Below, piece after piece: positions 3,535 through 29,746 of a stretch of DNA of 64,000 nt. The notes beneath the pieces are model-generated. The model did not search any database. It was not told the DNA's origin and worked only from the letters and a program-made list of their open reading frames with translations. The DNA lies in contig LBST01000006.1 in the NCBI GenBank assembly GCA_000991135.1, forward strand, positions 46,663 to 110,662, in the 5' to 3' direction. The stretch comes from Candidatus Roizmanbacteria bacterium GW2011_GWC1_37_12. GTDB lineage: Bacteria; Patescibacteriota; Microgenomatia; UBA1406; GWC2-37-13. A program made the position numbers and the translations under genes. Each line of letters begins with the position of its first letter. The first letter of the stretch is position 1.

Positions 3535-5721
3535 TTAATGAATATCGCTTGCTTGCATATCAACTGGTTCAGGATTTACCGGTCGTTTGACAACATCTCT
3601 CGGCTTCGAGCCTTCAGCCTGTCCCACGTACCCGGCTGCTTCCATCTGATCAAGAATCCTGGCTGCACGGGCATAACCAATAGATAATCTTCGTTGAAGA
3701 AGTGATGCTGACGCTTTATCTTGTTGCATGATGATTTCCAAAGCCTGATTAAATAGAGGATCGTTTTCTCCGCCGTTGACAACCATAGTTCCACCTGCCC
3801 CCGACCTGATGGTTACGGCCTGCTCTGTCACTTCCTCGGTATAATGGACTTGCGGAGCCTGGGATTTTAAGAATTTAACCAAGTTGACGACTTCTTTTTC
3901 GGTGACATACGGCCCTTGAATACGGACCGGCTTGGCTTTGTCAGGAGGCAGATAGAGCATATCTCCCCGACCCAATAGTTTCTCCGCTCCGGGCATATCG
4001 ATGATCACCCGCGAATCGATCATCGAGGAAACATTGAAAGCAACACGAGTCGGGATATTGGCTTTCATCAAACCAGTAATAACGTCGACAGATGGCCGCT
4101 GGGTCGCTAATATCAAATGAATTCCTGTTGCCCGAGACATCTGGGCGACTCTCGTAATTAATTCTTCAGCCTCGCCTGGAGCAAAAATCATTAGGTCGGC
4201 CAGCTCGTCGATGACAAAAAGGATGTAGGGTCTTTTTTCTATTCCTTCAATTGCATTATAGCTTTCGATATTTCTGGCGCCGGCTTTGGCAAAAATCTTG
4301 TATCTTGTCTCCATCTCGCCGACAGTCCACTTCAAAGCTGAAATAATCTTGTCAGCCTCGACAATCACTTCGGTTAAAAGGTGAGGAATGCCGTTATAGA
4401 TTGAAAGCTCGACTCGTTTCGGGTCGACCAAAATCATCCGCAAATCTTCCGGCCTGGTCCTAAAAAGAAATGAAGAAATCCAGGCGTTGAGAAGGACGGA
4501 TTTTCCGCTGCCTGTGGCTCCGGCAATCAAAACGTGAGGCATCTTAGAAAGGCTGGCCGCGATTGGCTGGCCGGAGACATCAAGCCCCAAAGGAACAAGA
4601 AGTGGATCGTTATTTGTAGTAAAGACAGAAGAGGACAACATGGCTTTTTCTGTAACGATTTCCGGTCTTTTATTGGGAATTTCTATGCCGACCAAGGACC
4701 GGCCAGGAATCGGAGCTTCAATTCTCACTTGTCCGGTCGAAGCCGCCAAAGAAAGGGCTAGATTATTGGATAAAGCTGTAATTCGCGACAGCTTTGTTCC
4801 CATAGCAATGGCAATCGCATACTGGGTAACTGCCGGTCCAAAATTTACCTCTTCTACCTTAGCTCTAATGCCAAAGCTGTCTAGAGTCTGTTCGATTACA
4901 GAAGCGTTGTGTTTGACATCGCCCCGGTCGGCTTCTTTTTGGGTGACGTCTGCCAAAAGCGACAACGGCGGATAGACCCAGGTTGTTTTTGAAAAGGCAG
5001 GTAGAGGTTTTATAGTGATTAAAGAATCTTTCTGTGACTGCGATACCTGCAGAGCGGGGGCCGGAGCCATTCTTGTCTTTTCCTCTAGTTTTTTATCTAG
5101 AATCAATTGTTTTTCTTCTTTTTTTCCAGTTAATAAAGGTTTTTCTGTTAGCCCTCTAAACAGATAATTTTTCAAAAAAAGCAATCCTGATTTCAAAAGA
5201 TTAAAAATAAAGATGAGAAAGACATCTATCGAAGTGTCTAAAAATAAAACCAACCCAATTATAAAAATCACCGCCATGATAATAATCGCGCCGATTAAGG
5301 AAAAATCAAGAGAGAGATTGTCAAATATTATCTTTCCAAAATCACCAGACTGAAAAATCCCCAACAAAGAAATAAAAACCATTATAATTCCGCCCGAAAC
5401 ATTTGGTTTGATAAATTTAAGCTTTTTGGTATTGAAGAAATGGGCCGAGACGAGAATTAAGATAAATGGAAGCATGATCGATAGCCAGCCAAAACTGCTG
5501 GTTAAGAATTTGTTTAGGCTAAAAAGAAGTCTTCCTGAATTCTCGTTCGACAAATTTTTCGCGAATGAGACTAACGAGACTAACGAAACCCCTATCAAAA
5601 TAAAACCCAAGATATTAAAAATTGTCTGTTTATTAATTTTGAACTTCAAAAACGGTAATCTTATTAAAGATCTTCTTCTTGCCATATTAATAATACTACT
5701 TATAGCCTCTTTGAAAATCAA
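3535..5721 (-). CDS. ftsK: DNA translocase FtsK/SpoIIIE
   Basis: N-terminal TM helices, Walker A GATGSGKS, the motor domain (LILATQRPSVDVITG) and a C-terminal gamma winged-helix (LLQRRLSIGYARAARILDQME). Confidence 0.9.
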   Translation of the reverse strand: MIFKEAISSIINMARRRSLIRLPFLKFKINKQTIFNILGFILIGVSLVSLVSFAKNLSNENSGRLLFSLNKFLTSSFGWLSIMLPFILILVSAHFFNTKKLKFIKPNVSGGIIMVFISLLGIFQSGDFGKIIFDNLSLDFSLIGAIIIMAVIFIIGLVLFLDTSIDVFLIFIFNLLKSGLLFLKNYLFRGLTEKPLLTGKKEEKQLILDKKLEEKTRMAPAPALQVSQSQKDSLITIKPLPAFSKTTWVYPPLSLLADVTQKEADRGDVKHNASVIEQTLDSFGIRAKVEEVNFGPAVTQYAIAIAMGTKLSRITALSNNLALSLAASTGQVRIEAPIPGRSLVGIEIPNKRPEIVTEKAMLSSSVFTTNNDPLLVPLGLDVSGQPIAASLSKMPHVLIAGATGSGKSVLLNAWISSFLFRTRPEDLRMILVDPKRVELSIYNGIPHLLTEVIVEADKIISALKWTVGEMETRYKIFAKAGARNIESYNAIEGIEKRPYILFVIDELADLMIFAPGEAEELITRVAQMSRATGIHLILATQRPSVDVITGLMKANIPTRVAFNVSSMIDSRVIIDMPGAEKLLGRGDMLYLPPDKAKPVRIQGPYVTEKEVVNLVKFLKSQAPQVHYTEEVTEQAVTIRSGAGGTMVVNGGENDPLFNQALEIIMQQDKASASLLQRRLSIGYARAARILDQMEAAGYVGQAEGSKPRDVVKRPVNPEPVDMQASDIH

Positions 5722-13363: not shown

Positions 13364-13609
13364 ATGAACAAAGTAGGGGAGCTTATTGAGTCTTTTTTGA
13401 AAAATAAGACAAGCGCTGAAATGCTTGATTTTTTAAAAGGCATTTTAACACCACATGAGTTTGAAAAACTGGTAACAAGATTGCAAATAGTAAAACTATT
13501 AAAAAAAGGCCTCCCCCACCAAGAGATCGCCCGCCGATTAAAAGTTGGTGTGGCCACGGTGACAAGAGGGTCTAGGGAATTAAGAATGGGAAGATTTAAA
13601 AAAATATGA
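13364..13609 (+). CDS. Trp-repressor-fold regulator (YerC/YecD family)
   Basis: 81 aa; LTPHEFEKLVTRLQIVKLLKKGLPHQEIARRLKVGVATVTRGSREL matches the YerC/TrpR helix-turn-helix pattern. Confidence 0.85.
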   Translation: MNKVGELIESFLKNKTSAEMLDFLKGILTPHEFEKLVTRLQIVKLLKKGLPHQEIARRLKVGVATVTRGSRELRMGRFKKI

Positions 13610-13656
13610 AAAACAAAATATTTTCAAATAATTGGTGGATAGATTCCCTCTGGTGA
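13606..13656 (+). CDS. Candidate Trp leader peptide MKNKIFSNNWWIDSLW
   Basis: The ATG overlaps the upstream stop (ATATGA). 3 of 16 codons are TGG, two of them tandem. Alternative hairpins and a terminator follow immediately. Confidence 0.6.
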   Translation: MKNKIFSNNWWIDSLW

Positions 13657-13709
13657 AGCAGATGATTTTTTGGTGGTCAAACCTCTGCTTCAAGCGGAGG
13701 CTTTTTTTA
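13654..13709 (+). terminator. Attenuator: antiterminator (13654-62 with 13684-92) overlapping an intrinsic terminator (13682-88 / 13694-13700 plus T-run)
   Basis: TGAAGCAGA pairs with TCTGCTTCA. CCTCTGC-TTCAA-GCGGAGG is followed by CTTTTTTT. Confidence 0.6.
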
Positions 13710-13724
13710 TTAATAGTTCAAATT

Positions 13725-13812: not shown

Positions 13813-15120
13813 ATGAAAAACACAAAAATAACATTATCAGATTCGGAAATTCCGGAATATTACCTAAATATTTCTTATTATTTAAGCAAATATCTTAAGA
13901 AACTTCCGGAGCCGCCTTTAAATCCAGGGACCAAAAAGCCTGTCGGCCCAGCGGATTTGTCAGCGATTTTTCCAATGGAACTAATCAAGCAGGAAGTGTC
14001 ACTTGAAGAAAAAATCAGGATTCCCGAAGAAGTCAGGGAGCTATACAAACTTTACCGGCCGACTCCATTGATTCGCGCCTTTAGGCTGGAAAAATTCTTG
14101 GATACACCCGCTCATATCTATTATAAATACGAGGGAGCAGCGCCAACCGGTGCTCATAAACTAAATACCGCGATCGCCCAGGCTTATTACAACAAAAAGG
14201 AAGGCGTAAAAACCCTGGCGACGGAAACCGGAGCCGGCCAGTGGGGTTCGGCTCTTGCCCTGGCTGCCAATTTCTTTGAAATGAAGTTGGTCGTCTTTAT
14301 GGTAAGAGTCAGTTTGGACCAAAAACCTTTCCGAAAAACCGTTATGGAGACGTACGGCGCCGAAGTCTTTGCCAGTCCGTCGGAAAAGACAGAGTTTGGT
14401 AAGAAAATTTTAAAAACCAATCCCGATCATCCGGGCAGTCTAGGTATTGCCATCAGCGAGGCTCTGGAAACTGTCGTAAAAAATAAAGGCTATAAATATT
14501 CTCTCGGCAGCGTCCTGAATCACGTTTTGCTTCATCAAACAGTGGTCGGGCTTGAAGCAAAGAAACAGATGGAAAAAGACGGAGAATATCCGGATGTCAT
14601 CATCGGCTGCGTCGGCGGCGGCAGTAATTTTGCCGGCATTGCTTTTCCTTTTATGACAGATAAATTAAAAGCCAAAAAGAAAGTCCGTTTCATCGGCGTC
14701 GAACCGTCATCTTGTCCGTCTTTAACCAAAGGCAGGTATAAATACGACTTTGGCGATACCGCCCAGATGACGCCGCTTTTAAAAATGCATACTTTGGGAT
14801 CGGACTTTGTCCCTTCACCCATTCATGCCGGAGGATTGCGTTATCACGGCATGGCGCCATTGATTTCGTTTTTATACAACGAAAAACTAATGGAGGCAGT
14901 TGCCTATGAGCAAAATCCTGTTTTTCAAGCCGGAGTCGATTTTGCCCGTACTGAAGGGATCATTCCGGCGCCCGAGTCAAACCATGCTATAAAAGCGACC
15001 ATCGACGAAGCTCTAAAAGCTAAAAAAGAGGGAAAGAAAAAAATAATTCTTTTCAACCTTTCCGGTCACGGCCTTTTAGATCTCAACGGTTATGACAAAT
15101 TTTTACACAAAAAATTATAA
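13813..15120 (+). CDS. trpB: Tryptophan synthase beta chain, TrpB2 type
   Basis: 435 aa with a TrpB2-type N-terminal extension; PLP-lysine motif [10 protein letters not shown]; GGGSNFAG. Strong SD GGGAGGAG. No trpA nearby. Confidence 0.9.
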
Positions 15121-15135
15121 ATCTAAAGTAAAAAA

Positions 15136-16095
15136 ATGGCAGAGAAGAAAAGTGTTACAAAAATGTGGAGCGCTTTAAATCCTTCTATATTTGAAAGGGG
15201 TAGCTTTACTATGTTGTTTAAAAAACTAGAATTACTAAGTGTTGCTCATACAGTTGCTGACTTAGTTATGCCAAATAATGGGGCTATAGAAAATTTATAT
15301 CTAATAGGCTGCGCCACTGCCAATCGAGAAATAAGAGTAATAAAACAAGCTAATCAATCCTTAGTAAATAAAATTTGTATGAAGAATGTTCAAGCAATAG
15401 ACATTGCCCCTCAACTATTAGCTGTTGCTGATAAAAGATTAAGTTTGTTGAAATTATTTGGCTTAGTGAAAAATTACACAACCCAACAACTTTCTGCAGA
15501 ACAAATCAAATTTACAAAAAATAAAATGAATAGCTTAGCTATTTTAGGTATATACGATTTAAATGGTCTTCTAAAAGAAGGATCAGAAAAAAATGACGAG
15601 CCTTTAGGACTTGATGAATATTCAGGTCCAATGAGAGATGTGCTTGGAGAGTTAACTCAAATTTCATCCCTTCAATATTTAAATAGTGAGTTCAAAGAAA
15701 AAGAATTAATAGCAGATTATGATAGTTCTGCTCCTAATCATAATAATAATAAAATAAGAGAAAAACTTAGAAATTATCATAGTAGCAATACTGATATTTG
15801 CGCAATGAGAATAGCAATAAAGCATAAATCTAATCCTGATTCACCTGTTTTTGTCTCAACTTGGTTTAATTTAGTAATGATGAAATCCATCTTTCAAGAA
15901 TTAGGATTAGATTGTCAAATTAATTCATTAGATAGCGATAAAGGGGCTGTTCTTGTTGTCACTAAAAAAGGTTTTCGAAAGGATTATGGAGCATCAAATA
16001 TTGCACTTGCTCTCAATAATGTTTTTGGTAACTTGGCAAACGATCGAATCTTAACTAATTTTGCAAGAAAACTTGTTACATTTTGCAACAACTAA
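15136..16095 (+). CDS. Hypothetical protein, weak class I SAM-methyltransferase-like pattern
   Basis: 319-aa ORF 15 nt after trpB. LYLIGCATANRE and VQAIDIAPQLLAVA loosely resemble MTase motifs I and post-I. Very AT-rich by eye. Confidence 0.45.
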   Translation: MAEKKSVTKMWSALNPSIFERGSFTMLFKKLELLSVAHTVADLVMPNNGAIENLYLIGCATANREIRVIKQANQSLVNKICMKNVQAIDIAPQLLAVADKRLSLLKLFGLVKNYTTQQLSAEQIKFTKNKMNSLAILGIYDLNGLLKEGSEKNDEPLGLDEYSGPMRDVLGELTQISSLQYLNSEFKEKELIADYDSSAPNHNNNKIREKLRNYHSSNTDICAMRIAIKHKSNPDSPVFVSTWFNLVMMKSIFQELGLDCQINSLDSDKGAVLVVTKKGFRKDYGASNIALALNNVFGNLANDRILTNFARKLVTFCNN

Positions 16096-16099
16096 AAAT

Positions 16100-17275
16100 A
16101 TGAAAAAACAAAGAATAATTATTATCGGTGGAGGATCAACTGGATTATCTACAGCTATAAATTTAGCTAAATTTAATGAAAATGAAATAATAGTTTTAGA
16201 AAAATCTTTTGTTGGCTCTGGACAAACAGGTCAATGTTGTGGTTTTGTCAGAACATTTTACAATAAAAAAGAGATGGCTTTTTCCGCTTTTAAAAGTAAT
16301 CAGGAAATTAAAAGAATTTCAAAGCAAAATAATGATATTGAATATATTAAAAAGGGACTTTTAGTTATAAACAGTTTAAAAAATAAAAATCTGTTGATGG
16401 AAAACATCAAAATGTTAAGGTCATTAGGAATTAAGGCAGAATATCTAGAGAATAAACAACTTAATAAAATTAATCCATACATAAAAACTGAAAATAGTTA
16501 CGCCGGATTTGACCCAGAAGCCGGGTATGTGAATTCACGTCTCGTAGTAGATTACTTAAAAAATCAATGCGAAAATTTAGGAGTTAAAATAATTGAAAAT
16601 ACTAAAGTTTTAAATATTAGACTTAAAAAGAAAATTTTTTATATAAGGACTAATAAAGGCGAACTTAAGGCTGCTAAAGTATTTAACGCCACTGCAGCTT
16701 ACTCAAACAAGATCAATTCTTTTTTTGACTTTCAACTTCCTATAAAAATAGTAAAAACCAATAACTGTTTTTATAGACTACCAATGGGCCCACAAAGATT
16801 TACAACTGCGATCGCTGATTTTGTTAACCTTTTCTATATAATTCCCCATAAAGAGTTTATCGATGTAAGTTCACTCACTGTTGATTTAAAAAAACAAGTA
16901 AATCCTGAAGATAAAAACATCTACAGACTTGATGAAAACGCATCTAAGCAATATTTAAATATAATTTCAAAAAGAATAAAAAATGCTGAGAAATCAAGTC
17001 TCTTGGGAGGTTTTGGTTCATGTATAGATATTAGTCCTGATTATTATCCAATATTAGGCAAAATAGATGAAGTTCCAAATTTCTATTGCGCTACCGGCTT
17101 TAGCGGAACTGGCTTTAAACATTTTCCTATGATTGGAATTCTTATGGCAGAAACTATTCTTGAAAAAAAACCAACTTATCCAAACCTAGTATCATATTTT
17201 AATTATAAAAGATTTGAGAAAGAAAAGGAAAAAGAAAGGAAAAAGGTAACCGATAGTTATTTCGTAAAAAAATAA
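16100..17275 (+). CDS. FAD-dependent amine oxidoreductase (DAO family, sarcosine/N-methylamino-acid oxidase-like)
   Basis: Dinucleotide fold RIIIIGGGSTGLSTA...VLEK and a C-terminal ATGFSGTGFKHFPMIG like the GFSGHGFKF motif of MSOX/MTOX-type enzymes. The ATG at 16100 is preferred over the ORF-track start at 16061. Confidence 0.8.
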   Translation: MKKQRIIIIGGGSTGLSTAINLAKFNENEIIVLEKSFVGSGQTGQCCGFVRTFYNKKEMAFSAFKSNQEIKRISKQNNDIEYIKKGLLVINSLKNKNLLMENIKMLRSLGIKAEYLENKQLNKINPYIKTENSYAGFDPEAGYVNSRLVVDYLKNQCENLGVKIIENTKVLNIRLKKKIFYIRTNKGELKAAKVFNATAAYSNKINSFFDFQLPIKIVKTNNCFYRLPMGPQRFTTAIADFVNLFYIIPHKEFIDVSSLTVDLKKQVNPEDKNIYRLDENASKQYLNIISKRIKNAEKSSLLGGFGSCIDISPDYYPILGKIDEVPNFYCATGFSGTGFKHFPMIGILMAETILEKKPTYPNLVSYFNYKRFEKEKEKERKKVTDSYFVKK

Positions 17276-17276
17276 T

Positions 17277-18872
17277 ATGTTAAGCAAATATGAAATAAGT
17301 CGAGGCGGGAGAGTAAAGGCAGCAGGACTTTCTCTGGCAATGTTCACCGATCCTGCTGAGGCATATTTTGGCCATCCAAATGCAATTAATGCTGCAATGA
17401 TGATAGAGACCTTTACAAGGCTTCGCAAATCACCACCAGATGCAATTCGGAATCGTTTTTTTCCTCGCAATCATTCAACTCATGGTATGTTGAAAAATGG
17501 CGCTGCACTATCTCGAACATCAATTACTAATCATCAAGGGATAGGACAATTTTTAGCACATAGCGAAAAAGACGGAACACAAACGGAAACCCAACTGAGA
17601 ATTGATATTGCAGAACAAACTGGTTTTGTAATTCTTGAAGCACATTTAGAACATCAGATAAACAAACTTCAATATCCTTATGGTATGTACTCAAAAATAC
17701 AGGAAGTGAAAGAGTATTTTGCCAGCGGTAATATTCCTGAAGCCCAATTAGCATATGAAAGACTTTTGCTTGCCGGAGAAGAGCTTGGCATCCAAGTTCA
17801 AAGAACGGCAAAAGTGGGACGTGAAGGTTTATTTTTTATTCACCCAAGCATTTCTAGGTTCCCTATTGAGATTGACTCCGCAACTCATGAAAAAATGCAA
17901 CTTAAAGGTAATCAATTAGTTGAAATCATGGTGGAGATAGCTAATCAGAAACAAAAACAATTCGCGTTTGATCATCAATTACCTACACCATTAAATAAAA
18001 TAGATTATCCTCCACTTTATTTTCAAATTGATTTTTTAATCAATAAGGATCGAAGCTTTGCTGTTTCCGATGTTGGCTTGCCAGACGTTGGATTATTTCT
18101 TACCGCTATTGAGAGTGAGGGAAATCAAACGGTTGAGGAAGCAAAACAAACTGTAGCTGGAAGATTGAATAAAGTGTCATTGTCGATATTTAATAAGGCA
18201 ATAGAATACGGTTCAAAAACGATTAGTTTTATCACGAGAAAATCGGTAATAGAAAACCTTGAAGATACTCTAGAAATAAAGGAAATAGAAGTATTACGGG
18301 GTTTGCTTGAAAAAACAGGATTTCAAACAAACATTATCTCTGAAGAACAAGCTCTGGATATGACCCCTGACGATCTTGGCATACTTATGAATGTGGACAC
18401 GTCATCACCTGGTTTTCAAAACCTTCTAAAAAGAAGGCTTGTTGAAGAATCAGTACCCATTCACCCCGACCCTTTTTTATTACTTGCACAAAATGAACTT
18501 ACTGAACTTCCACAAGTTACTGTATCAAAAGAGAGTATTGATTTACTGAGAGGTGTTTTTTCCACAACAGAAAAAACAGATAATATAACAAAATCAGCAG
18601 TTCAACTAGCGGCTGTTGAACGGATTATTAGAAAGTTAGGAATGCCAGATGAATGCGACATTTTTCATATGTACATTCCTGGTCAACCAACTCCCATTCC
18701 ATTTTATCAATTTGACTTAAAAGGATTACAGGTTGCCCTAAACTACGCCGTTGATGCTCCCGAAGTATTACTTAGAGGAATACCTGTCAATCCTGATAAT
18801 GCTGTTCTTTTTGATACTAATGGTAAACCTGTTTATGCAACATTTCGTTATATGTTTAATCAAAAACTATGA
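17277..18872 (+). CDS. Hypothetical 531-aa protein (very tentative ATP-grasp-like ligase features)
   Basis: Long ORF 1 nt after the flavoenzyme gene. LYFQIDFLINKDRSFAVSDVGLPDVG vaguely recalls the ATP-grasp xDFxx..ExNxxPG strand-loop. No firm family. Confidence 0.55.
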   Translation: MLSKYEISRGGRVKAAGLSLAMFTDPAEAYFGHPNAINAAMMIETFTRLRKSPPDAIRNRFFPRNHSTHGMLKNGAALSRTSITNHQGIGQFLAHSEKDGTQTETQLRIDIAEQTGFVILEAHLEHQINKLQYPYGMYSKIQEVKEYFASGNIPEAQLAYERLLLAGEELGIQVQRTAKVGREGLFFIHPSISRFPIEIDSATHEKMQLKGNQLVEIMVEIANQKQKQFAFDHQLPTPLNKIDYPPLYFQIDFLINKDRSFAVSDVGLPDVGLFLTAIESEGNQTVEEAKQTVAGRLNKVSLSIFNKAIEYGSKTISFITRKSVIENLEDTLEIKEIEVLRGLLEKTGFQTNIISEEQALDMTPDDLGILMNVDTSSPGFQNLLKRRLVEESVPIHPDPFLLLAQNELTELPQVTVSKESIDLLRGVFSTTEKTDNITKSAVQLAAVERIIRKLGMPDECDIFHMYIPGQPTPIPFYQFDLKGLQVALNYAVDAPEVLLRGIPVNPDNAVLFDTNGKPVYATFRYMFNQKL

Positions 18873-19258
18873 AATTCTGCACACCAATTAATACGAATAA
18901 TGCGGTGAGGTTTGCCATGAAGTTATTGTTGTCTTCCAAGGAGTCGGTGGACATGACCATGGATATGCAGGGCGAAATAGACCATCCACTGCCGCAAAGG
19001 TATCATCATTTGATAGCACGACTTGTGAAATGTAAGATAACGGTAGCCCGATATATGTACGGAGAAAAAAAATTATTTGAGGAGATTAAGAATCGGTATG
19101 AAGGAGTTCGAGTATATTATGGCGGCAAAATGGACAGGTACCAGCGAATGCTCATTATTGATAAAAAAAAGGGCATGTTTGCGCTGAATGGGAATATATT
19201 TTTCACCACCTTTAAGCCACTTATTAACAGTTTATTTATTTATATTTCAGTTAATTAA
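18869..19258 (+). CDS. Hypothetical 129-aa protein, translationally coupled to the 531-aa ORF
   Basis: ATGA start/stop overlap at 18869-18872. No motif recognised. Confidence 0.45.
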   Translation: MKFCTPINTNNAVRFAMKLLLSSKESVDMTMDMQGEIDHPLPQRYHHLIARLVKCKITVARYMYGEKKLFEEIKNRYEGVRVYYGGKMDRYQRMLIIDKKKGMFALNGNIFFTTFKPLINSLFIYISVN

Positions 19259-19268
19259 TTAACTGAAA
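19245..19268. promoter_or_regulatory. Perfect 24-bp palindrome TTTCAGTTAATTAATTAACTGAAA upstream of trpS
   Basis: Spans the stop codon of the 129-aa ORF and lies 25 nt upstream of the trpS -10 TATAAT (19293-98). AGTTAA/TTAACT half sites resemble TrpR operator half sites. Confidence 0.4.
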
Positions 19269-19305
19269 CAAATAATTTACAAAATATTTAGGTATAATCA
19301 AAACT

Positions 19306-20775
19306 ATGATAGATCAAAAAGTAACAGACTATAGTGAACTGCTTACCAATCTTGGTATAGAAAATAAGGTATTAAGCCATCCTGAATCAAGAAATATTGA
19401 TCAAGTTATCGGTTCTCTTGGCAAAACAAGATCAGATAGTGCTGCAACACTGGTTATGAAAGCTGATGATACATATATCTCCATCATTAGAAGAGACGAC
19501 TGTAAGTTAAATACCAAAAAAGTAAAAAAACTTTTAGGAGTAGATAGTTTAAGGATCGCAACTGATGAAGAATTTATTGAAATCACAGGATTAATTCCTG
19601 GAGCAGCCACGTATTTTAATAAAAATATCACTAAGGTTTTAATTGATAAAAAAGTTTTAGAAAAGGAATTTATAGTTGGCGGCTCGGGAAGTTTTTTATT
19701 TAGTATAAGTCATAAAACATCGGATTTAACAAAAATCCCCGGAAGTCAATTAGTTGATGTTGCTGAAGAAAGTTTAGTAATAACTGATTCAAAATATTTG
19801 GGGAAAAAACGGGTTTTTTCAGGAATCAGGGCAACAGGTAGATTGCATTTAGGTAATTATCTGGGAGCAGTTAAAGGGTTTCTCGAACTTGAAAAAACCT
19901 GCAAATACGAAACTGTTTACTGTGTTGTTGATGTGCACTCAATAACAACCCCATATGATAAAGAAGCGCTTGCCAAAAATAAAAGAGAAATCATCATTGA
20001 TTATTTGGCAGCTGGACTTGATCCAAAAAAAAGTATCATTATCTATCAGTCGGATGTACCGGAACATATTGAGTTGGCATTCTATTTTTCAACAGTTGAA
20101 ACGATTGCGAGGATGATGCATCTGCCAACTTATAAAGAAAAAGTAAAACAGTATCCAAACGCCAATACAATGGCTCTTTTGAACTATCCGATTTTAATGG
20201 CGGCTGATATTTTAATCTATAAAGCTAGCCTTGTCCCAGTTGGCATTGATCAAGAACCACATTTGGAAATCACCCGGGAAATTGCCAGAAAGATGAATCA
20301 ACTTTACGGAACCGATTTTCCTGAGCCTGTCAGGTTTGCTACTAAAGGAGAATATATTCCATCTCTTACTGGCGAGGGAAAAATGAGCAAGACTGTTGCC
20401 GGAAGTTTTATCAATCTAACTGATTCTTTTGATGAAATTAGGAAAAAGATCCGATCAGCTCCGACGGCAACCACATCAGGAGGTGAAATGTCTTCTGGAG
20501 TAAAAACTCTTTTTACTTTTGCCCAATTATTTATCCCAAACGAAGTCGAAGGATTTAAAAAGTCATTTGAGGACAAATCTCTCCAATTTGTCCGACTAAA
20601 AGATGCTATTTCCGAGGCGATTTATAAAGAACTTAAACCATTCCAAGAAAGACGGGCAAAAATCGCCGCTGATCAAAAATATGTTGACGAAGTGATCAAA
20701 GATGGCGCCGAACGCGCCCGCAAAATCGCCAAGGAAACCGTCCGTGAAGTCAAACAAAAGATGGGTTTACTATAG
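19306..20775 (+). CDS. trpS: Tryptophan--tRNA ligase with N-terminal YbaK/ProX-like (aminoacyl-tRNA editing fold) domain
   Basis: Residues about 168-489 are TrpRS (GRLHLGNYLGA, KMSKT). Residues 1 to about 165 match the YbaK/EbsC pattern (LSHPESR...TLVMK...ISIIRRDDCKLNTKKVKKLLG...TGLIPGA...VGGSG). Confidence 0.85.
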   Translation: MIDQKVTDYSELLTNLGIENKVLSHPESRNIDQVIGSLGKTRSDSAATLVMKADDTYISIIRRDDCKLNTKKVKKLLGVDSLRIATDEEFIEITGLIPGAATYFNKNITKVLIDKKVLEKEFIVGGSGSFLFSISHKTSDLTKIPGSQLVDVAEESLVITDSKYLGKKRVFSGIRATGRLHLGNYLGAVKGFLELEKTCKYETVYCVVDVHSITTPYDKEALAKNKREIIIDYLAAGLDPKKSIIIYQSDVPEHIELAFYFSTVETIARMMHLPTYKEKVKQYPNANTMALLNYPILMAADILIYKASLVPVGIDQEPHLEITREIARKMNQLYGTDFPEPVRFATKGEYIPSLTGEGKMSKTVAGSFINLTDSFDEIRKKIRSAPTATTSGGEMSSGVKTLFTFAQLFIPNEVEGFKKSFEDKSLQFVRLKDAISEAIYKELKPFQERRAKIAADQKYVDEVIKDGAERARKIAKETVREVKQKMGLL

Positions 20776-23493: not shown

Positions 23494-23781
23494 TTATTTT
23501 AATACCTTCTCATATCCACCACATCCTCTAAATAACCAGTGAGCTGTTCGCGTAACCGTAGTTGTTGAGACTCCAAGTTTCTTAGCGATTGCCTTATAAG
23601 ACATTCCTTTTTTAAGGAGTCTCGCCATCTCTAGTCGATTTGCAAATTCTTCAATCTCTTTTATCGTTAAAAGATCTCTTAAAAAATTGGCTACATCCTG
23701 TTCTGTTTTCAATTTTAAGAAGGCACTAGACAGTGCCTTCTCTTTATCATTTTTTGGTTTATAGTTTTGAAAATTAGACAT
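23494..23781 (-). CDS. Trp-repressor-fold regulator (YerC/YecD family), second paralog
   Basis: 95 aa; LLTIKEIEEFANRLEMARLLKKGMSYKAIAKKLGVSTTTVTRTAHWL. TATAAT lies 6 nt upstream of the ATG. Confidence 0.85.
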   Translation of the reverse strand: MSNFQNYKPKNDKEKALSSAFLKLKTEQDVANFLRDLLTIKEIEEFANRLEMARLLKKGMSYKAIAKKLGVSTTTVTRTAHWLFRGCGGYEKVLK

Positions 23782-23801
23782 AAATAAATTATAAACTAAT
23801 C

Positions 23802-23829
23802 CACTACATTATATTAATATATTGTAGTG
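23802..23829. promoter_or_regulatory. Near-perfect 28-bp palindrome CACTACATTATATTAATATATTGTAGTG in the divergent control region
   Basis: One central mismatch. Lies over the -35 region expected for the minus-strand regulator gene. Confidence 0.4.
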
Positions 23830-23841
23830 AAATAAATACTC

Positions 23842-23870
23842 TTGACTTTTTAAAGTCTATATATTATCAT
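23842..23870 (+). promoter_or_regulatory. Putative promoter TTGACT-17-TATCAT for the leader/HAL operon
   Basis: TTGACT 23842-47, 17-nt spacer, TATCAT 23865-70. Confidence 0.45.
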
Positions 23871-23894
23871 ATTAATACGTTAATATAAACAACG

Positions 23895-23914
23895 CACTTT
23901 AATTAATTAAAGTG
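23895..23914. promoter_or_regulatory. Perfect 20-bp palindrome CACTTTAATTAATTAAAGTG in the 5' UTR
   Basis: Between the putative TSS and the leader ATG at 23926. Shares the TTAATTAATTAA core with the palindrome at 19245. Confidence 0.4.
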
Positions 23915-23925
23915 GATAAATAATC

Positions 23926-24006
23926 ATGGATCAATTTAACGACAAAAAAAATTATTTTAATGAAGTTCATCACGCCCTGCCTCTGGCGGGGTTGCCTAAT
24001 ATGTAG
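23926..24006 (+). CDS. Candidate leader ORF MDQFNDKKNYFNEVHHALPLAGLPNM
   Basis: 26 codons with adjacent His codons CAT CAC (23968-73), located 12 nt upstream of the antiterminator arm GGCGGGG (23985-91). The SD is weak. Confidence 0.35.
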   Translation: MDQFNDKKNYFNEVHHALPLAGLPNM

Positions 24007-24019
24007 TTAACTAGTTAAC
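24006..24019. promoter_or_regulatory. Perfect 14-bp palindrome GTTAACTAGTTAAC (TrpR-operator-like core)
   Basis: Centred on CTAG (24011-14), immediately after the leader stop codon. Confidence 0.4.
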
Positions 24020-24031
24020 TGAATTACTCTA

Positions 24032-24058
24032 CCCCGCCTACAAGGCGGGTTTTTGTTT
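24032..24058 (+). terminator. Intrinsic terminator CCCGCC-TACAA-GGCGGG plus TTTTTGTTT, with alternative pairing to 23985-23991
   Basis: 6-bp GC stem plus T tract, 32 nt upstream of the HAL-like ATG. CCCCGCC (24032-38) is perfectly complementary to GGCGGGG (23985-91). Confidence 0.6.
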
Positions 24059-24089
24059 GGATTAAAAATTATAAATTTTAAAAAATTTT

Positions 24090-25652
24090 ATGAAACAAAT
24101 AAATGAAGTCACTATCACGGGTCGCGATTTAACAATTGAACAAATTAAGGCAGTTGCCAGAGATTATGTCAAACTAGAAATTGGTAAAGAAGCTTTTTCT
24201 AAAAGTAAGCAAGGATACAATATTTTACAGGAAAAAATTAATAAAAAAGAAAAAATTTATGGCGTAACAACCGGGTTTGGTGAATTTTCTCAAGTATTTA
24301 TTGATCCTGAAAAAGCGGCTCAATTACAACTTAATCTTATCCTAAGCCACAGCACCGGAGTTGGCGATCCAGCTTCCGAAGATGTCGTTCGCGCCACCAT
24401 GTTGTGCCGAGCTAACTATCTGGCGTCAGGCATGTCAGGAGGAAGACCTATTCTTTTGCAAATTCTTATTGAAATGTTAAATAAAAGAGTTACTCCTTTA
24501 ATACTGGAACAAGGATCAGTAGGATCAAGCGGAGATCTGGCTCCATTGGCAATGATGGTCTTACCGATGATTGGCGTTGGCGAAGCGTTTTACCAAGGCA
24601 AGAGAATGTCTGGAAAATTAGCAATGGAAAAAGCTGGTATTCCTTTGATAAAACTCCAAGCTAAAGAAGGATTGGCCTTGATCAATGGCGATACTTTTAT
24701 GGCTGGATTAGGATCTCTTGAACTTTATGATGCTTTGCAATTAGCAAAAATTTCTGAGATTTCCTGTGCAATGACAATGGAAGCAATTGAGGTGGTCCTT
24801 CAAGCTATGGATGAAAAAATTGCTAGAGCAAGAAGGTTCAATGGTCAAATTACAGCAGCTAGAAATTTAAGAAAACTCATGAATAAGAGTGAAATTCTTG
24901 CCGGACCTCCACAGCGAGTTCAAGACGCTTATTCGATCCGTTGCGCACCAGTTATTCTCGGTGCTAGTCGAGAAGCTCTCCTTTGGGTAAAGCGCCAGTT
25001 TGAAACAGAGATTAACGCCGCTCAAGATAATCCATTAGTGTTTTTAGAAACAAAGGAAGTTTTATCAGGTGGCAATTTTCACGGTCAACCAATAGCCATG
25101 CCTTTGGAAACTATGGCTCAAGCAATTCAAGAATATGCCAATAGTTCAGAAATTCGTCAGGAACGAATGAATAATCCTTATTACAGTAAAATATTGCCGG
25201 CATTTCTTATCGAATCAGGCGGATTAAATTCAGGATTTATGATGCCCCAGTATGCATCAGCTGCGCTAGTCAATGAAAACAAAATCCTTTGCTACCCGGG
25301 AATCGTTGACTCAATTCCTGTTTCAGCCGGACAAGAAGATGACTGTTCAATGGGAACAAATGCTGCTTTAAAAATTCAAAGAATAATAAGGAACACCATG
25401 TATGTCTTGGCAATTGAACTTATGCTCGGTTGTCAAGCATTGGACTTTAAAAAAGGCAAAAAACCAGGTCTTGGAGTATTTGTTGCATACAAATTAATTA
25501 GAGAAACAGTTCCCTATATTAAAAAAGATTCAATCATGTATCCAATGGTTAAAGAAATTTTTGAACTAATAAAGTCAGAAAAAATAGTCCAAACAGTAGA
25601 AAATTCTATCGGCAAATTAGAAGAACCGAAAGATTTACTAAAACCACTATGA
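24090..25652 (+). CDS. Histidine ammonia-lyase-like MIO enzyme (aromatic amino acid lyase family)
   Basis: GVTTGFGEF, LILSHSTGVG (the Ser-His pair typical of HAL rather than PAL/TAL), MIO-forming GSVGSSGDLAPLA (SSG instead of ASG), NGDT and QDAYSIRC. Confidence 0.85.
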   Translation: MKQINEVTITGRDLTIEQIKAVARDYVKLEIGKEAFSKSKQGYNILQEKINKKEKIYGVTTGFGEFSQVFIDPEKAAQLQLNLILSHSTGVGDPASEDVVRATMLCRANYLASGMSGGRPILLQILIEMLNKRVTPLILEQGSVGSSGDLAPLAMMVLPMIGVGEAFYQGKRMSGKLAMEKAGIPLIKLQAKEGLALINGDTFMAGLGSLELYDALQLAKISEISCAMTMEAIEVVLQAMDEKIARARRFNGQITAARNLRKLMNKSEILAGPPQRVQDAYSIRCAPVILGASREALLWVKRQFETEINAAQDNPLVFLETKEVLSGGNFHGQPIAMPLETMAQAIQEYANSSEIRQERMNNPYYSKILPAFLIESGGLNSGFMMPQYASAALVNENKILCYPGIVDSIPVSAGQEDDCSMGTNAALKIQRIIRNTMYVLAIELMLGCQALDFKKGKKPGLGVFVAYKLIRETVPYIKKDSIMYPMVKEIFELIKSEKIVQTVENSIGKLEEPKDLLKPL

Positions 25653-26563
25653 ATAATTCGTTATCACTAGGCGAAGGCAATACACCACTAATCCGTCTCT
25701 TTAATTTAGAGACATTATTAAATTGGAAAGGTGAAATCTGGGTAAAAGCCGAATACCAGAATCCAACTGGTTCTTTTAAAGACCGAGGCAGTGTTACCGA
25801 AATAACCGATGCTTTGAATCAAAAAAAACAAGGTGTTATTTGCGCATCGACCGGAAATATGGCGGCTAGTTTATCAGCCTATGCTTCAAGAGTGAGTTTA
25901 AAATGTTTTGTTGTTGTACCGAAAAATACTCCCCTAGGAAAACTCAAGCAAGCGGCTGTTTGCGGAGCTAAGTTAATAGAAATTGACGGAAACTATGATC
26001 TATGTGTCAAAAAAGCCAAAGAAATTGCTTCAAGAGAAAATCTTCTCCTCTGTGGTGATTATGAGTTAAGGAGATTAGGACAAAGATCTCTAGGACGGGA
26101 ATTAGCCGAATCAGGAATTGATTTTGATGCGTTTGTCGTACCAGTAGGTAATGGAACTCTAGGCTGTGCCATTATTGAAGGATTTGTTGAAAAAGACAGG
26201 TGGCCTCAATTTATCGGAGTTCAAGGAGAAGGATCTGACCCAATAACATTAGCTTGGCAAAATCAAACTGAATCACTTCGATTAATCGAAGTGCCTCAAA
26301 CTGTTGCCTCGGCCATGAAAGTCGGCAACCCTCTTGACGGAAAATTGACTTTAAACTGGGTTTACGAAACTAACGGAATGATGTTGTCTGTTGATGATAA
26401 AGAAATCCTTCTTGCCCAAAAACTTCTTGCTCAAAAAGAAGGAATCTATGTCGAAACTTCTGCTGCCGCAACTTTAGCCGGCTTAATTATTATAAAAAAT
26501 AAAATAAATTCTTTAAAAATTGTTCTTATCCTTACCGGAAGCGGGTTAAAGGAAATAATTTAA
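25649..26563 (+). CDS. Threonine-synthase-like PLP enzyme (fold type II), short form
   Basis: GNTPLIRL, YQNPTGSFKDRG (PLP lysine) and CASTGNMAASLSAYA. 304 aa. ATGA overlap with the HAL-like gene. Confidence 0.8.
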   Translation: MNNSLSLGEGNTPLIRLFNLETLLNWKGEIWVKAEYQNPTGSFKDRGSVTEITDALNQKKQGVICASTGNMAASLSAYASRVSLKCFVVVPKNTPLGKLKQAAVCGAKLIEIDGNYDLCVKKAKEIASRENLLLCGDYELRRLGQRSLGRELAESGIDFDAFVVPVGNGTLGCAIIEGFVEKDRWPQFIGVQGEGSDPITLAWQNQTESLRLIEVPQTVASAMKVGNPLDGKLTLNWVYETNGMMLSVDDKEILLAQKLLAQKEGIYVETSAAATLAGLIIIKNKINSLKIVLILTGSGLKEII

Positions 26564-26564
26564 A

Positions 26565-26729
26565 ATGAAAATTGAAATTCCTGATTTAAATCCCTTTCAA
26601 ATAATAGGTTCATTTCCACGACTATCTGTCGTAGCGGCGAGAGAACCTAGTTTATTTCTTATCCCAACCCCTATTAAATATGAGGAATTACAACAAAGGT
26701 CTAGTGAATTATTTTCCAGATATATATAA
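26565..26729 (+). CDS. N-terminal fragment (motif 1 region) of the HisRS-like protein, in a different frame from the main ORF
   Basis: The ATG lies 1 nt after the upstream stop. MKIEIPDLNP...SLFLIPTPIKYEELQQRSSELFSRYI resembles the HisRS/HisZ N-terminus and the class II motif 1 proline region. It ends at TAA 26727-29 within GATATATATAATGG. Confidence 0.5.
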   Translation: MKIEIPDLNPFQIIGSFPRLSVVAAREPSLFLIPTPIKYEELQQRSSELFSRYI

Positions 26730-27771
26730 TGGCAGGCTTCCTTATAGATTTGTTTATCCTGCGGAAGCATTTAAAACTTATTTAGAAATTTATATTCTTC
26801 TTTTTGACCCGAAGGCTCAACCTGTTCCTGCAAAAGATGTCTTTACAGTAAAAACAGACGACGGCCAAATCGGTTATTTATCAAGAAGTAGTTTTTGGAG
26901 TGCTGTTTTTGACGGTGTGTCGGCAACGAAAAATAATTATTATTTATTGGAGCGGGGAAATGTCTTAAATGTTGGTGGAGTTCAGCCTTGTTTTAGAAAT
27001 GAAGTTAAAGAAATTGAGCCTGGCTGGAGGGAACTTGGTTTTCTTCAAGCTGACATAGAATTAGTTGGTTTAACAACCGAGACAAGAACTCCACAGTGGT
27101 TTGACAAGACGGCTGTCAAACAGTTAATTACTTCTTTAGAATCCATAAATATTCCTCGGCCTTTTATTCAAATCAGACTCAATAATTTTTTCCAAATTTT
27201 ATATGAAGTATTGGGAGACAAAATTGGTTTTTTGGAAAAAGAGATATTTGGGTTAGATTCTTTGGATAAAATGGCCACTGCAAGAGTAAACAAAAATCGA
27301 GAAGAATTTAGTCAATTACAAAAACTTGCTTTTTCCCAACTAGATCTTTGGCTATCCGAAAATAAACTATCAAAAGAGGCAGAAAGTTTTTTATCAACTC
27401 TTGTAACTTCGGGTGTTTATGATGAACAGATACTTAAAACAAGTTTTCCAAATTCGTATCAATCTCTTCAAAACTTAAAAGAAATTGTCGAAGAAATTCA
27501 AAAAGAATATCCTGAATTAACTGTTTTTATTGATCCTCTGTCTGTTAGAGCAGGTACTCCAGGATATGATGGTATGACTATGCAGGCTGATGTAAAAACA
27601 TTGACCAAAATTTTCACCGAACTCGCTGGTGGCGGTGCTTATCAAAGAGCTGCTCAACAAAGCTGGAAAGTCCAATTTCAAGAAAATCCTCCTGAAAATT
27701 TATATATGATCGGTTTCGCCCTTGGACTGACACGTCTCAACACAGCTTTAAATTATTTAAGCCAACAATGA
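26680..27771 (+). CDS. HisRS-like class II aminoacyl-tRNA-synthetase paralog (HisZ-like, no anticodon-binding domain); probably continuous with 26565-26729 through a +1 shift
   Basis: Motif 2-like GGVQPCFRNE...ELGFLQADIELVG, VRAGTPGYDGMTMQ (compare RGLDYYTG) and motif 3-like ELAGGGAYQRAA (compare GGGRYD). Confidence 0.65.
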   Translation: MRNYNKGLVNYFPDIYNGRLPYRFVYPAEAFKTYLEIYILLFDPKAQPVPAKDVFTVKTDDGQIGYLSRSSFWSAVFDGVSATKNNYYLLERGNVLNVGGVQPCFRNEVKEIEPGWRELGFLQADIELVGLTTETRTPQWFDKTAVKQLITSLESINIPRPFIQIRLNNFFQILYEVLGDKIGFLEKEIFGLDSLDKMATARVNKNREEFSQLQKLAFSQLDLWLSENKLSKEAESFLSTLVTSGVYDEQILKTSFPNSYQSLQNLKEIVEEIQKEYPELTVFIDPLSVRAGTPGYDGMTMQADVKTLTKIFTELAGGGAYQRAAQQSWKVQFQENPPENLYMIGFALGLTRLNTALNYLSQQ

Positions 27772-28841
27772 TAAAAAAAGAATTGATTGAACTTAATAAA
27801 AAACTAGTACGATTTAAAACAATCTCCTCAAATAAATCCGAACTAGAAAGATGTATTAGATTTATAGAGAATTATTTTAATATCAATAATTTATTTAAAA
27901 AAATATTTTATTCTAATGGTATTCCTTCGCTCCTCGTGTCCAACTCATTATCAAAAAACCCGGATTTATTATTGAACGGCCATATAGATGTAGTGGAAGG
28001 CAATAATAATCAATTTAAGCCTTTTGTCAAAAACGATAAACTTTATGGAAGAGGGACGATCGACATGAAATCTTCAATAGCTGTGATTATGCTTATTATG
28101 AAGAAGCTTAAATCCACTAATAAAAAAATCTCGGCGATGTTTGTAAGCGATGAAGAGATTTTTGGTAAAGACGGTACAAAATATATTCTCAATAAAGGTT
28201 ATAAGCCAAAATTCACAATAATCACGGAGGAATCAAACTTTGATATCGTTATTAAACAAAAAGGCCAGTTAACTTTAAAACTTGAGGCAAAAGGAAAATC
28301 CGGTCATGGATCACAACCATGGACTGGACTAAATGCTATTGAAGAATTAATTGAAATTTATCAAAAAATAAGAAATTTATTTCCAAAAGAACAAAAAAAC
28401 ACCTGGAATATAAATTCTATTAATTTAGGAATTATTAATGGTGGAGTAGCTCCTAACGTTATTCCCTCAAAGGCAGAATTGATATTAGATATTCGTTATC
28501 CAACAAATCTAAAACTTGATTCTTTCTTAGTTAGATTTTATGGAATTTTAAGAAAATCTAGCGTTACTTATTCTTTATTGACAAAAACAAATCCCATGGA
28601 TTCTGGCAATGCTATATTCTTTATTAATAAACTCAAACCTATTGTTGAAAAACAGATTAAAAGAAAAGCTAAATTAAAATGGACAAATTACTGTAGTGAT
28701 GGTCGTTATTTTTCCGATTCAAAATTACCAGTAATTGAATTTGGTCCGACTGGAGCTAATTATCATACTGATAATGAATATGTAGATATAAACAGTCTGG
28801 TTAATTATTACGAGATTCTAAAGAGATTTATTATTTCTTAG
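27768..28841 (+). CDS. M20 family metallohydrolase (ArgE/DapE/acylase-like)
   Basis: LNGHIDVV, GRGTIDMK, VSDEE, GKSGHGSQP and NGG..PNVIP. Paralog of 49348-50430. Confidence 0.85.
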   Translation: MIKKELIELNKKLVRFKTISSNKSELERCIRFIENYFNINNLFKKIFYSNGIPSLLVSNSLSKNPDLLLNGHIDVVEGNNNQFKPFVKNDKLYGRGTIDMKSSIAVIMLIMKKLKSTNKKISAMFVSDEEIFGKDGTKYILNKGYKPKFTIITEESNFDIVIKQKGQLTLKLEAKGKSGHGSQPWTGLNAIEELIEIYQKIRNLFPKEQKNTWNINSINLGIINGGVAPNVIPSKAELILDIRYPTNLKLDSFLVRFYGILRKSSVTYSLLTKTNPMDSGNAIFFINKLKPIVEKQIKRKAKLKWTNYCSDGRYFSDSKLPVIEFGPTGANYHTDNEYVDINSLVNYYEILKRFIIS

Positions 28842-29674: not shown

Positions 29675-29746
29675 TGTCAGCAGCAGGATTCGAACCCGCG
29701 ACCACTCGCTTATGAAACGAGTGCTCTACCGCTGAGCTATGCTGAC
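29675..29746 (-). tRNA. tRNA with anticodon CAT (elongator Met or lysidine-dependent Ile2), no encoded CCA
   Basis: Reverse complement folds as a cloverleaf: GTCAGCA-TA-GCTC-AGCGGTA-GAGC-A-CTCGT-TTCATAA-GCGAG-TGGTC-GCGGG-TTCGAAT-CCTGC-TGCTGAC-A. Confidence 0.85.

Follow-up and report, generated by a model that had tools for sequence, protein, structure and literature searches.

A predicted His-codon attenuator beside a HisR-like repressor gene upstream of a histidine ammonia-lyase operon in Patescibacteria

The hisL leader of Escherichia coli and Salmonella (RF00514) is the closest described counterpart of the element treated here, a leader region in a 64,000-nucleotide stretch of DNA (the window) from Candidatus Roizmanbacteria bacterium GW2011_GWC1_37_12, where it separates a gene for a HisR-like repressor from an operon that begins with histidine ammonia-lyase (HAL). 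The window leader is very probably a ribosome-mediated leader-peptide attenuator that senses His-tRNA(His) and is layered on the HisR-type repressor. It has in common with hisL a short open reading frame (ORF) with adjacent His codons, the 1:2, 2:3 and 3:4 hairpins, an intrinsic terminator located ahead of the first structural gene and, as predicted here, induction at low levels of charged tRNA-His. It differs in having two His codons as against seven, in residing in a patescibacterial host and in being without sequence or covariance-model similarity to hisL. No Rfam family matches the window leader at its gathering threshold, nor the region 23700-24200 at E values up to 10, and the absence of RF00514 from these matches places the leader outside that sequence family. 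The genes controlled also differ, as the window operon comprises HAL, ThrC-like, HisRS-like and M20 genes (with hisS in relatives) rather than genes for histidine biosynthesis, and it has a repressor alongside.

The tryptophan operon of E. coli is similar in another respect, in that a TrpR-family repressor at the promoter is combined with a leader-peptide attenuator (trpL), and the window harbors both a Trp and a His version of this arrangement. In contrast to E. coli, the window repressor belongs to the HisR (YerC) branch, the genes under control have no part in biosynthesis and, in the Trp locus as well as in one relative (L011 in the numbering used here for related loci), the leader ORF either comes immediately after the repressor stop codon or overlaps it. 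YerC is HisR, a TrpR-family repressor whose operator consensus in Firmicutes is cacTTTAnnnnnnTAAAgtg, and the orthologue from Ruminococcus gnavus binds DNA only with histidine (PMC9413887). The window shares with the Firmicutes HisR regulon both the repressor family and a site, at 23895-914, that is identical to the 20-bp consensus. In Firmicutes, however, the targets of HisR are histidine biosynthesis and transport, and the His attenuators predicted there, with 3-5 His codons, are found in genomes without HisR control, whereas in the window HisR and an attenuator appear on one operon; the survey in question did not include Patescibacteria (PMC9413887).

The His T-boxes, such as those of the Lactococcus and Corynebacterium his operons, likewise respond to uncharged tRNA-His through a terminator and an antiterminator, and a reduced T-box is the equivalent element in one relative (L012). 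The window leader has neither T-box sequence nor stem I, RF00230 being absent from the same two sets of Rfam matches, and it is predicted to sense charging through the ribosome and not by direct tRNA binding. In the hutPHUIGM operon of Bacillus subtilis, a terminator upstream of hutH is overcome on a histidine signal. HutP is a histidine-activated protein that induces on excess, whereas the logic predicted here is induction on shortage. No HutP-like protein was found among the ten ORFs scanned in the neighbourhood of the locus, the search not having extended to the rest of the genome, and the leader contains only two UAGs, with 5-nt spacing, at 24004-24016, which do not amount to HutP-type repeats. 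In the literature available to us, a search turned up nothing relevant on attenuators, T-boxes or HAL in Patescibacteria. The mechanism itself is a textbook one; what is unusual is the phylum, the presence of only two His codons, the dual control by HisR and an attenuator, and the target operon, the last of which is the most interesting aspect.

The leader ORF and its alternative RNA structures

From the promoter towards HAL, the window leader is made up of the following features.

23842..23870, + strand: sigma-70-type promoter TTGACT-17-TATCAT, with 10/12 consensus matches
23926..24006, + strand: leader ORF of 26 codons, MDQFNDKKNYFNEVHHALPLAGLPNM, with equivalent ORFs in 10 further lineages
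23968..23973, + strand: putative regulatory His codons CAT CAC, the HH doublet being present in 11/11 leader peptides
23975..23981, + strand: segment 1, CCCUGCC, which pairs with segment 2 and would be covered by a ribosome that has stalled at His
23985..23992, + strand: segment 2, GGCGGGGU, which pairs with segment 1 or segment 3, at an offset of +14 from the last His codon
24005..24020, + strand: inner-helix palindrome AGTTAACTAGTTAACT, which stabilises the predicted antiterminator hairpin and is identical in L010
24031..24038, + strand: segment 3, ACCCCGCC, common to the antiterminator (2:3) and the terminator (3:4)
24044..24058, + strand: segment 4, GGCGGG, and the U-tract TTTTTGTTT, forming the terminator 3' arm and tail

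An initial annotation of the window had proposed a His-codon attenuator next to a YerC/TrpR-like gene, and its promoter (23842-70), its 26-codon ORF with a His pair at 23968-73 and its terminator (24033-58) were all found where it had placed them. The terminator hairpin, CCCGCC-TACAA-GGCGGG (CCCGCCTACAAGGCGGG), occupies 24033-49 and is followed by TTTTTGTTT, to 24058. The antiterminator pairing of GGCGGGG at 23985-91 with CCCCGCC at 24032-38 is also borne out, and extends to 8 bp with the flanking bases (23985-92 with 24031-38). That scheme of antiterminator and terminator stands, but it had missed segment 1 (CCCUGCC at 23975-81), which begins at +4 from the last His codon and makes the segments four instead of three. 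Judged from its sequence, the window leader has the four segments of a classical attenuator.

Hairpin 1:2 has 7 bp and a 3-nt loop, with an energy of -12.0 kcal/mol for the segments alone and -13.4 kcal/mol with one flanking pair. The 2:3 antiterminator, aided by the inner helix at 24005-20, reaches -20.8 to -22.0 kcal/mol, and hairpin 3:4 has -12.2 to -12.9 kcal/mol. Folding of 23974-24050 as a whole gives -34.1 kcal/mol as against a shuffle mean of -20.7 kcal/mol (z = -5.2), and none of 200 shuffles was as stable. A scan of the 64-kb window for 5'-leader terminators found only two, that of this leader and that of the Trp leader.

The effect of a ribosome was modelled in masked folds, in which a 29-nt ribosome footprint is excluded from pairing. 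With the ribosome at either His codon the 2:3 hairpin forms and the terminator is absent, whereas with the ribosome at the stop codon the terminator forms, in keeping with the attenuation that the initial annotation had proposed. The masked folds of L010 switch in the same way. The unconstrained minimum-energy fold is a different structure, with a 2:3 hairpin nested inside a 1:4 helix, and was rejected as the functional one: L010 breaks the 1:4 pairs yet retains the 3:4 terminator in a shifted register (CCCCGC/GCGGGG), and the functional helix is for this reason taken to be 3:4.

The TTGAC and -10 blocks of the leader promoter are kept in the alignment with L010, L007 and L018. The leader ORF ends in a UAG at 24004. 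Among 2000 dinucleotide shuffles of the intergenic region, an ORF of this kind (ATG start, at least 10 codons, containing HH) arose by chance in only 15. Its weak Shine-Dalgarno (SD) sequence, which had been entered as a caveat, turns out to be no objection, as an SD-like 4-mer is present in only 7 of the 42 long ORFs of the window and the HAL gene itself has none. In many window genes a TATAAT is found 6-9 nt 5' of the ATG (for example upstream of 9310, 19306, 34925 and 59755 and, on the minus strand, of 21419 and 51668), and this spacing suggests that leaderless mRNAs are frequent in this genome. The leaders of several relatives begin 7-9 nt past the -10 element, as would be expected of leaderless mRNAs.

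From these parts a course of events can be proposed. Transcription would start from the promoter at 23842-70, and a ribosome would translate the 26-codon leader. With charged tRNA-His in short supply, the ribosome would pause with CAU or CAC (23968-73) in its A site, covering segment 1 (23975-81) and leaving segment 2 (23985-92) unpaired; segment 2 would then pair with segment 3 (24031-38), the inner helix at 24005-20 adding stability, and segment 4 would be left without a partner, such that no terminator forms and the HAL, ThrC-like, HisRS-like and M20 genes are transcribed by readthrough. When tRNA-His is charged, the ribosome would reach the UAG at 24004, which puts it on or beside segment 2 in the interval before segment 3, hairpin 3:4 would form ahead of the U-tract, and transcription would end near 24054-58. 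If the leader is not translated at all, hairpins 1:2 and 3:4 would both form and termination would again follow. Independently of this, the HisR-like repressor would bind one or both of the palindromes that lie in the interval from the -10 element to the leader ORF.

Conservation of the leader and its links to tRNA-His

Related loci were collected via the HisRS-like family encoded in the operon and via HAL homologues, and it was the HAL lookups that supplied most of the leaders; scans of genomes and metagenomes with the HisRS-like family led to only three additional loci. HAL itself has around 75 close clusters in the Microgenomates. The nearest genome locus to the window is L007, from a patescibacterial metagenome-assembled genome, and the HAL protein of the window is 86-87% identical to proteins named Candidatus Roizmanbacteria. 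A search of sequencing runs found the window sequence in groundwater metagenomes.

The test of conservation that had been suggested for the small ORF and its His codons gave a strongly positive result. An ORF with 2-4 adjacent His codons (HH, HHH, HHHH or HHxH) lies directly 5' of HAL in all 11 of the lineages of Patescibacteria (Microgenomates) listed here; these loci are not all independent, and they represent at least six unrelated leader designs.

Window: ...NEVHHALPLAGLPNM
L007: MKKIKSQVSLHHTLPQAGSPFM
L010: MIQSSDIKFSFSFHHSLPQAGFPKM
L018: MNFKSLDIIFNTFHHTRAFTG
L011: MKNNTVNKTTEAHHTR
L016: MLNICVQNKANHHNLTNLVG
L001: ...LRGLNHHHNN
L005: ...CSLLHHSLY
L013: ...ACLHHHHTAG
L014: ...FSLHHTLN
L015: ...CLHHVHVRV

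The peptides vary in length from 16 to 46 aa, have unrelated N-termini, and are unalignable beyond the His run or, in close relatives, beyond the stretch that codes for the RNA segments. No residue doublet other than HH is present in all of them, the runner-up being found in 4, and His accounts for 9.2% of the leader residues. The chance of an HH-containing ORF is 0.8-5.6% per locus.

The architecture of the RNA is also retained. Six loci (the window, L010, L007, L018, L011 and L016), which we term class I, all keep the 1:2, 2:3 and 3:4 pairings as well as the U-run, with segment 1 at +4 or +5 and segment 2 at +13 to +18 from the last His codon. The sequence of segment 2 varies between them (GGCGGGGU, ACGGGGUA, GCGGGUA or GUGGGGUG), and segment 3 is complementary in every case. 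In L007 the inner-helix palindrome is replaced by a different sequence that is also able to form a helix.

The remaining loci (L001, L005 and L013-L015), termed class II, are built differently. Their His codons and stop codon adjoin or lie inside the 5' arm of the next hairpin, their U-tracts are poor, and masked folding of these loci gave no clean switch. Their alignment reveals a conserved, covarying hairpin whose 3' side abuts the HAL SD sequence, and a motif past the stop codon, GCGCGUGGUUGAG, is common to L005, L013, L014 and L015 (for instance at 255-305 of L005). From this arrangement, class II leaders may act by ribosome occlusion or by sequestration of the ribosome-binding site.

The twelfth lineage, represented by L012 (Levybacteria), has no HH leader but a reduced T-box in the same position, at 4762-4949. 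It scores 51 bits (E = 1.7e-10), which lies under the RF00230 gathering score of 93 because its stem I is very short. The loop of this stem, GUCACGA, contains the His codon CAC, and the T-box bulge is UGGG, which fits discriminator C73 of tRNA-His, the fourth base of the bulge being one that covaries with the tRNA discriminator. Downstream of this T-box region (4762-5000) the L012 operon contains HAL, a pyridoxal phosphate (PLP) enzyme, a small ORF and hisS. L012 also contains a second, full-length T-box (102 bits, at 2703-2992), which precedes an unknown 324-aa gene and one for an Asp/Glu racemase.

Two further links to tRNA-His are found in the relatives. In L014 a tRNA-His (GUG) gene, with encoded G-1 and CCA and with C73, lies at 3881-3956 between the HH leader and HAL, and a true hisS is located in or just past the operon, in the same direction, in L001, L005 and L012-L016. 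The T-box, the tRNA-His gene and the hisS linkage all point to induction on uncharged tRNA-His, and together with the conserved HH doublet, the shared geometry and the masked folds they support the attenuator that was originally proposed.

A switch in the leader RNA that is thrown by something other than the ribosome, such as a HutP- or TRAP-like protein, a tRNA acting on a degenerate T-box or a small ligand, has also to be considered. The antiterminator loop does carry UAG-containing repeats (24004-24018), L012 does employ a T-box, and HAL operons in Bacillus are under protein-mediated antitermination. We nevertheless think such a switch improbable, since it leaves unexplained why the HH reading frame is maintained in every lineage, while the loop sequence is not kept in L007, no Rfam family is detected at E values up to 10, and 0 of the 10 neighbouring ORFs scanned is HutP-like.

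The repressor and competing explanations

The repressor gene is divergent from the leader, and it and the palindromes around it are arranged as follows.

23494..23781, - strand: hisR-like repressor gene, 95 aa, TrpR/YerC family (Pfam Trp_repressor, E = 1.8e-19)
23797..23834, unstranded: inverted repeat over the regulator's own promoter-like site, with 19-nt arms that are 84% complementary
23869..23886, unstranded: palindrome ATATTAATACGTTAATAT of the TTAAY-N2-RTTAA type, a candidate operator that overlaps the -10 element and the likely start site
23895..23914, unstranded: HisR box CACTTTAATTAATTAAAGTG, with 0 mismatches to the consensus cacTTTAnnnnnnTAAAgtg; also a 5' RNA hairpin

The identification of this gene as YerC/TrpR-like is upheld, as the 95-aa protein scores 60.8 bits against TIGR02531 (YerC/YecD), above the cut-off of 42.2, and 35.6 bits against the TrpR equivalog TIGR01321, below the cut-off of 67.25. 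By these scores it belongs to the HisR (YerC) branch. Of the solved structures, 3g1c and 3frw, both TrpR-like proteins from Firmicutes, are the closest to it, and orthologues with 46-83% identity adjoin the HAL operon in 7 other loci. Histidine is presumably its co-repressor.

The predicted operator is one or both of the palindromes at 23869-86 and 23895-914. The first of these is kept in L007, L010 and L018, occurs as a variant in L001 and is a perfect 30-bp palindrome in L014; a palindrome of the TTAAC-N2-GTTAA type is common to the relatives in which the repressor has the same recognition helix. The TTAAY-N2-RTTAA pattern occurs 4 times in the window, as against an expectation of 1.4, and 3 of the 4 occurrences are in this region. 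The second palindrome is the sole site in the 64-kb window with no more than 2 mismatches to the Firmicutes consensus; it stays palindromic in L007 and has symmetric changes in L010, and L011 has two HisR-type boxes at its hisR promoter. The inverted repeat at 23797..23834, which covers the minus-strand promoter-like site of the regulator at 23817-23788, is a possible site of autoregulation.

Among the palindromes that had been listed as targets of the regulator, 23895-914 is thus a perfect HisR box. The palindrome at 24006-19 fits TTAAC-N2-GTTAA but was rejected as an operator, L007 having an unrelated, helix-forming sequence there, and is more likely the inner RNA helix of the antiterminator.

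The perfect HisR box and the second palindrome, both situated between promoter and ORF, might be taken to mean that the repressor alone regulates, with the ORF, its His codons and the hairpins incidental and the terminator a leaky or constitutive barrier; it is also the case that HisR and RNA elements rarely co-occur on the same genes in Firmicutes (PMC9413887). Such an arrangement is nonetheless highly improbable. It would not account for an HH doublet in 11/11 leaders that are otherwise unalignable, for a four-segment geometry that is kept while the sequences differ, or for a T-box in the leader's place in L012, and three loci (L005, L013 and L015) have the HH leader without an adjacent repressor gene.

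The opposite sense of regulation, in which completed translation of the leader when histidine is plentiful would lead to readthrough and HAL would act as a histidine-induced catabolic enzyme, is physiologically sensible for a histidine ammonia-lyase. It can also draw on the class II loci L001, L005 and L013, where the stop codon lies at the 5' arm of the hairpin, such that a terminating ribosome would melt the hairpin as well. We regard this sense as scarcely credible, as in the window hairpin 3:4 is free to form when the ribosome is at the stop codon, and 2:3 is the favoured hairpin when it stalls at His. T-boxes respond to uncharged tRNA with induction, and it is a T-box that replaces the leader in L012. 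In addition, hisS is co-transcribed in relatives, and a HisR-type repressor silences genes at high histidine (PMC9413887).

Least probable of all is that the product that matters is a trans-acting small RNA, the terminated transcript of about 180 nt, or a micropeptide, the 26-aa leader peptide: attenuator RNAs and leader peptides are reported to act in trans in Sinorhizobium (PMC6614838, PMC7298713), but apart from HH and the stretch coding for the RNA segments the peptide here is unconserved, the element invariably sits immediately 5' of HAL, and a role in trans could add to attenuation in cis without replacing it.

A number of points weigh against attenuation by the ribosome and have to be set beside the evidence for it. 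Tight coupling of transcription and translation in Patescibacteria is assumed, and the transcription start site is predicted. The stalled-state fold of L007 still favours the terminator, as segment 2 can fold on itself, and the outcome for L011 varies with where the 3' edge of the footprint is placed. No variation occurs in the 2:3 helix among the window, L010 and L007, which amounts to conservation without covariation in this close trio, and covariation is seen only between the more distant, unalignable leaders. Two His codons are a far smaller sensor target than the seven of E. coli hisL; the caveat to this effect in the initial annotation is weakened, if not removed, by the finding of 2-4 His codons in the relatives, among which two is the family norm. 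The window sequence is absent from the metatranscriptomes of the same study, which are tiny SOLiD runs, and only DNA metagenomes contain it. Finally, the induction of a histidine-degrading enzyme in histidine starvation is counter-intuitive.

The operon, its Trp counterpart and their possible function

The attenuator would control four genes.

24090..25652, + strand: HAL, first operon gene (NF006871, 573.6 bits with a cut-off of 524; TIGR01225, 547.9 bits with a cut-off of 539.15)
25649..26563, + strand: short threonine-synthase-like (ThrC-like) PLP enzyme, identified by domain and NCBIfam matches and by synteny
26565..27771, + strand: HisRS/HisZ-like paralogue that lacks an anticodon-binding domain and is disrupted at its 5' end in the window
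27768..28841, + strand: M20 deacylase of the ArgE/DapE type, last operon gene, identified by domain and family matches

The description of the first gene as histidine-ammonia-lyase-like proved sound, the protein exceeding both hutH cut-offs. Among solved structures its best matches are HALs, and the alignment has an SSG triad (in place of ASG) as well as the SH and QED motifs. The ThrC-like enzyme always comes next after HAL in those relatives that still have a ThrC-like gene. The HisRS-like gene that had been reported is present as well, but its 5' end is frameshifted or deleted in the window: at 26565-26730 the N-terminus (MKIEIPDLNPF...) lies in another frame and around 20 residues are missing in comparison with L007, which would reflect either a pseudogene or an assembly error. 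The family to which it belongs (26680-27771; P0001-P0005) is extremely rare, with 5 clusters among 5.8 billion proteins, and invariably accompanies HAL and the M20 deacylase. The accessory genes are variable, being the M20 deacylase in the window and two aminotransferases in L010. Downstream of the operon lies a tRNA-Met (CAU) gene (29675-29746, - strand), and the same tRNA is found downstream in L007 (6333-6405) and L018 (8000-8072).

The order of genes around the locus is conserved in the Microgenomates across L001, L008, L011 and L013-L016, with some loci missing certain members. The fullest version reads DnaB (-), a metallo-beta-lactamase-fold protein (-), two unknown genes, M24 peptidase, hisR, the leader, HAL, PLP enzyme, hisS, EamA transporter, L31 and RF-1. 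In the lineage of the window, hisS and EamA have been lost from this position.

The Trp locus of the same window has a comparable organization.

13364-13609: TrpR-like gene, 81 aa, whose stop codon overlaps (ATGA) the start of the leader MKNKIFSNNWWIDSLW

This leader carries WW..W codons and is followed by a terminator at about 13682-13708, the attenuator region as a whole being 13364-13712. The operon (13813-20775) encodes a TrpB2-like protein, an unknown protein, a flavin adenine dinucleotide (FAD)-type amine oxidase, two further unknown proteins and TrpRS. The best NCBIfam matches of the amine oxidase (sarcosine oxidase beta, amino oxidase and N-methyl-tryptophan oxidase) are all far under their cut-offs. 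TrpRS (19306-20775) has an N-terminal domain of the YbaK/tRNA_edit type (PF04073, E = 1.5e-16), a fusion that looks unusual for a tryptophanyl-tRNA synthetase. The parallel drawn earlier between the two loci holds for the layout of repressor and leader attenuator, but the genes controlled, from TrpB2-like to TrpRS, are not those of tryptophan biosynthesis.

Patescibacteria are generally unable to synthesise amino acids. Each of the two loci brings together an aminoacyl-tRNA synthetase (or its paralogue) and enzymes by which the amino acid could be formed from a precursor. Tryptophan salvage from indole based on TrpB2 has been described (PMC11085991), and histidine may analogously be supplied by HAL, the ThrC-like enzyme and the variable accessory genes. 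On this salvage reading HAL might catalyse the reverse reaction, with urocanate and ammonia as substrates, and the accessory genes would help. A supply of histidine is, speculatively, the only role we have found that fits induction on histidine shortage. The broader proposal, that leader attenuators and TrpR-family repressors of Patescibacteria control salvage-plus-charging operons, in which the HAL/ThrC-like pair with HisRS supplies histidine under starvation, is offered tentatively and is more doubtful than the attenuator itself. Under this proposal the Trp operon, with its TrpB2, amine oxidase and TrpRS, would be the parallel case.

Gene regulation in the Candidate Phyla Radiation is almost unstudied, and this lineage has no cultured member. 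The window leader and its relatives would mean that classical ribosome-coupled attenuation operates, or at least is strongly conserved, in this radiation. The paired Trp and His loci suggest a common layout of repressor, leader, salvage enzymes and aminoacyl-tRNA synthetase. The leader may also be read as a form of annotation, as it indicates that HAL, the ThrC-like enzyme and the HisRS-like protein are wanted when His-tRNA is short, which contradicts the default annotation of degradation. The logic of the attenuator thereby points to a salvage role that is biochemically testable and, if this role were true, a conserved HAL of the MIO family would have an anabolic or salvage function.

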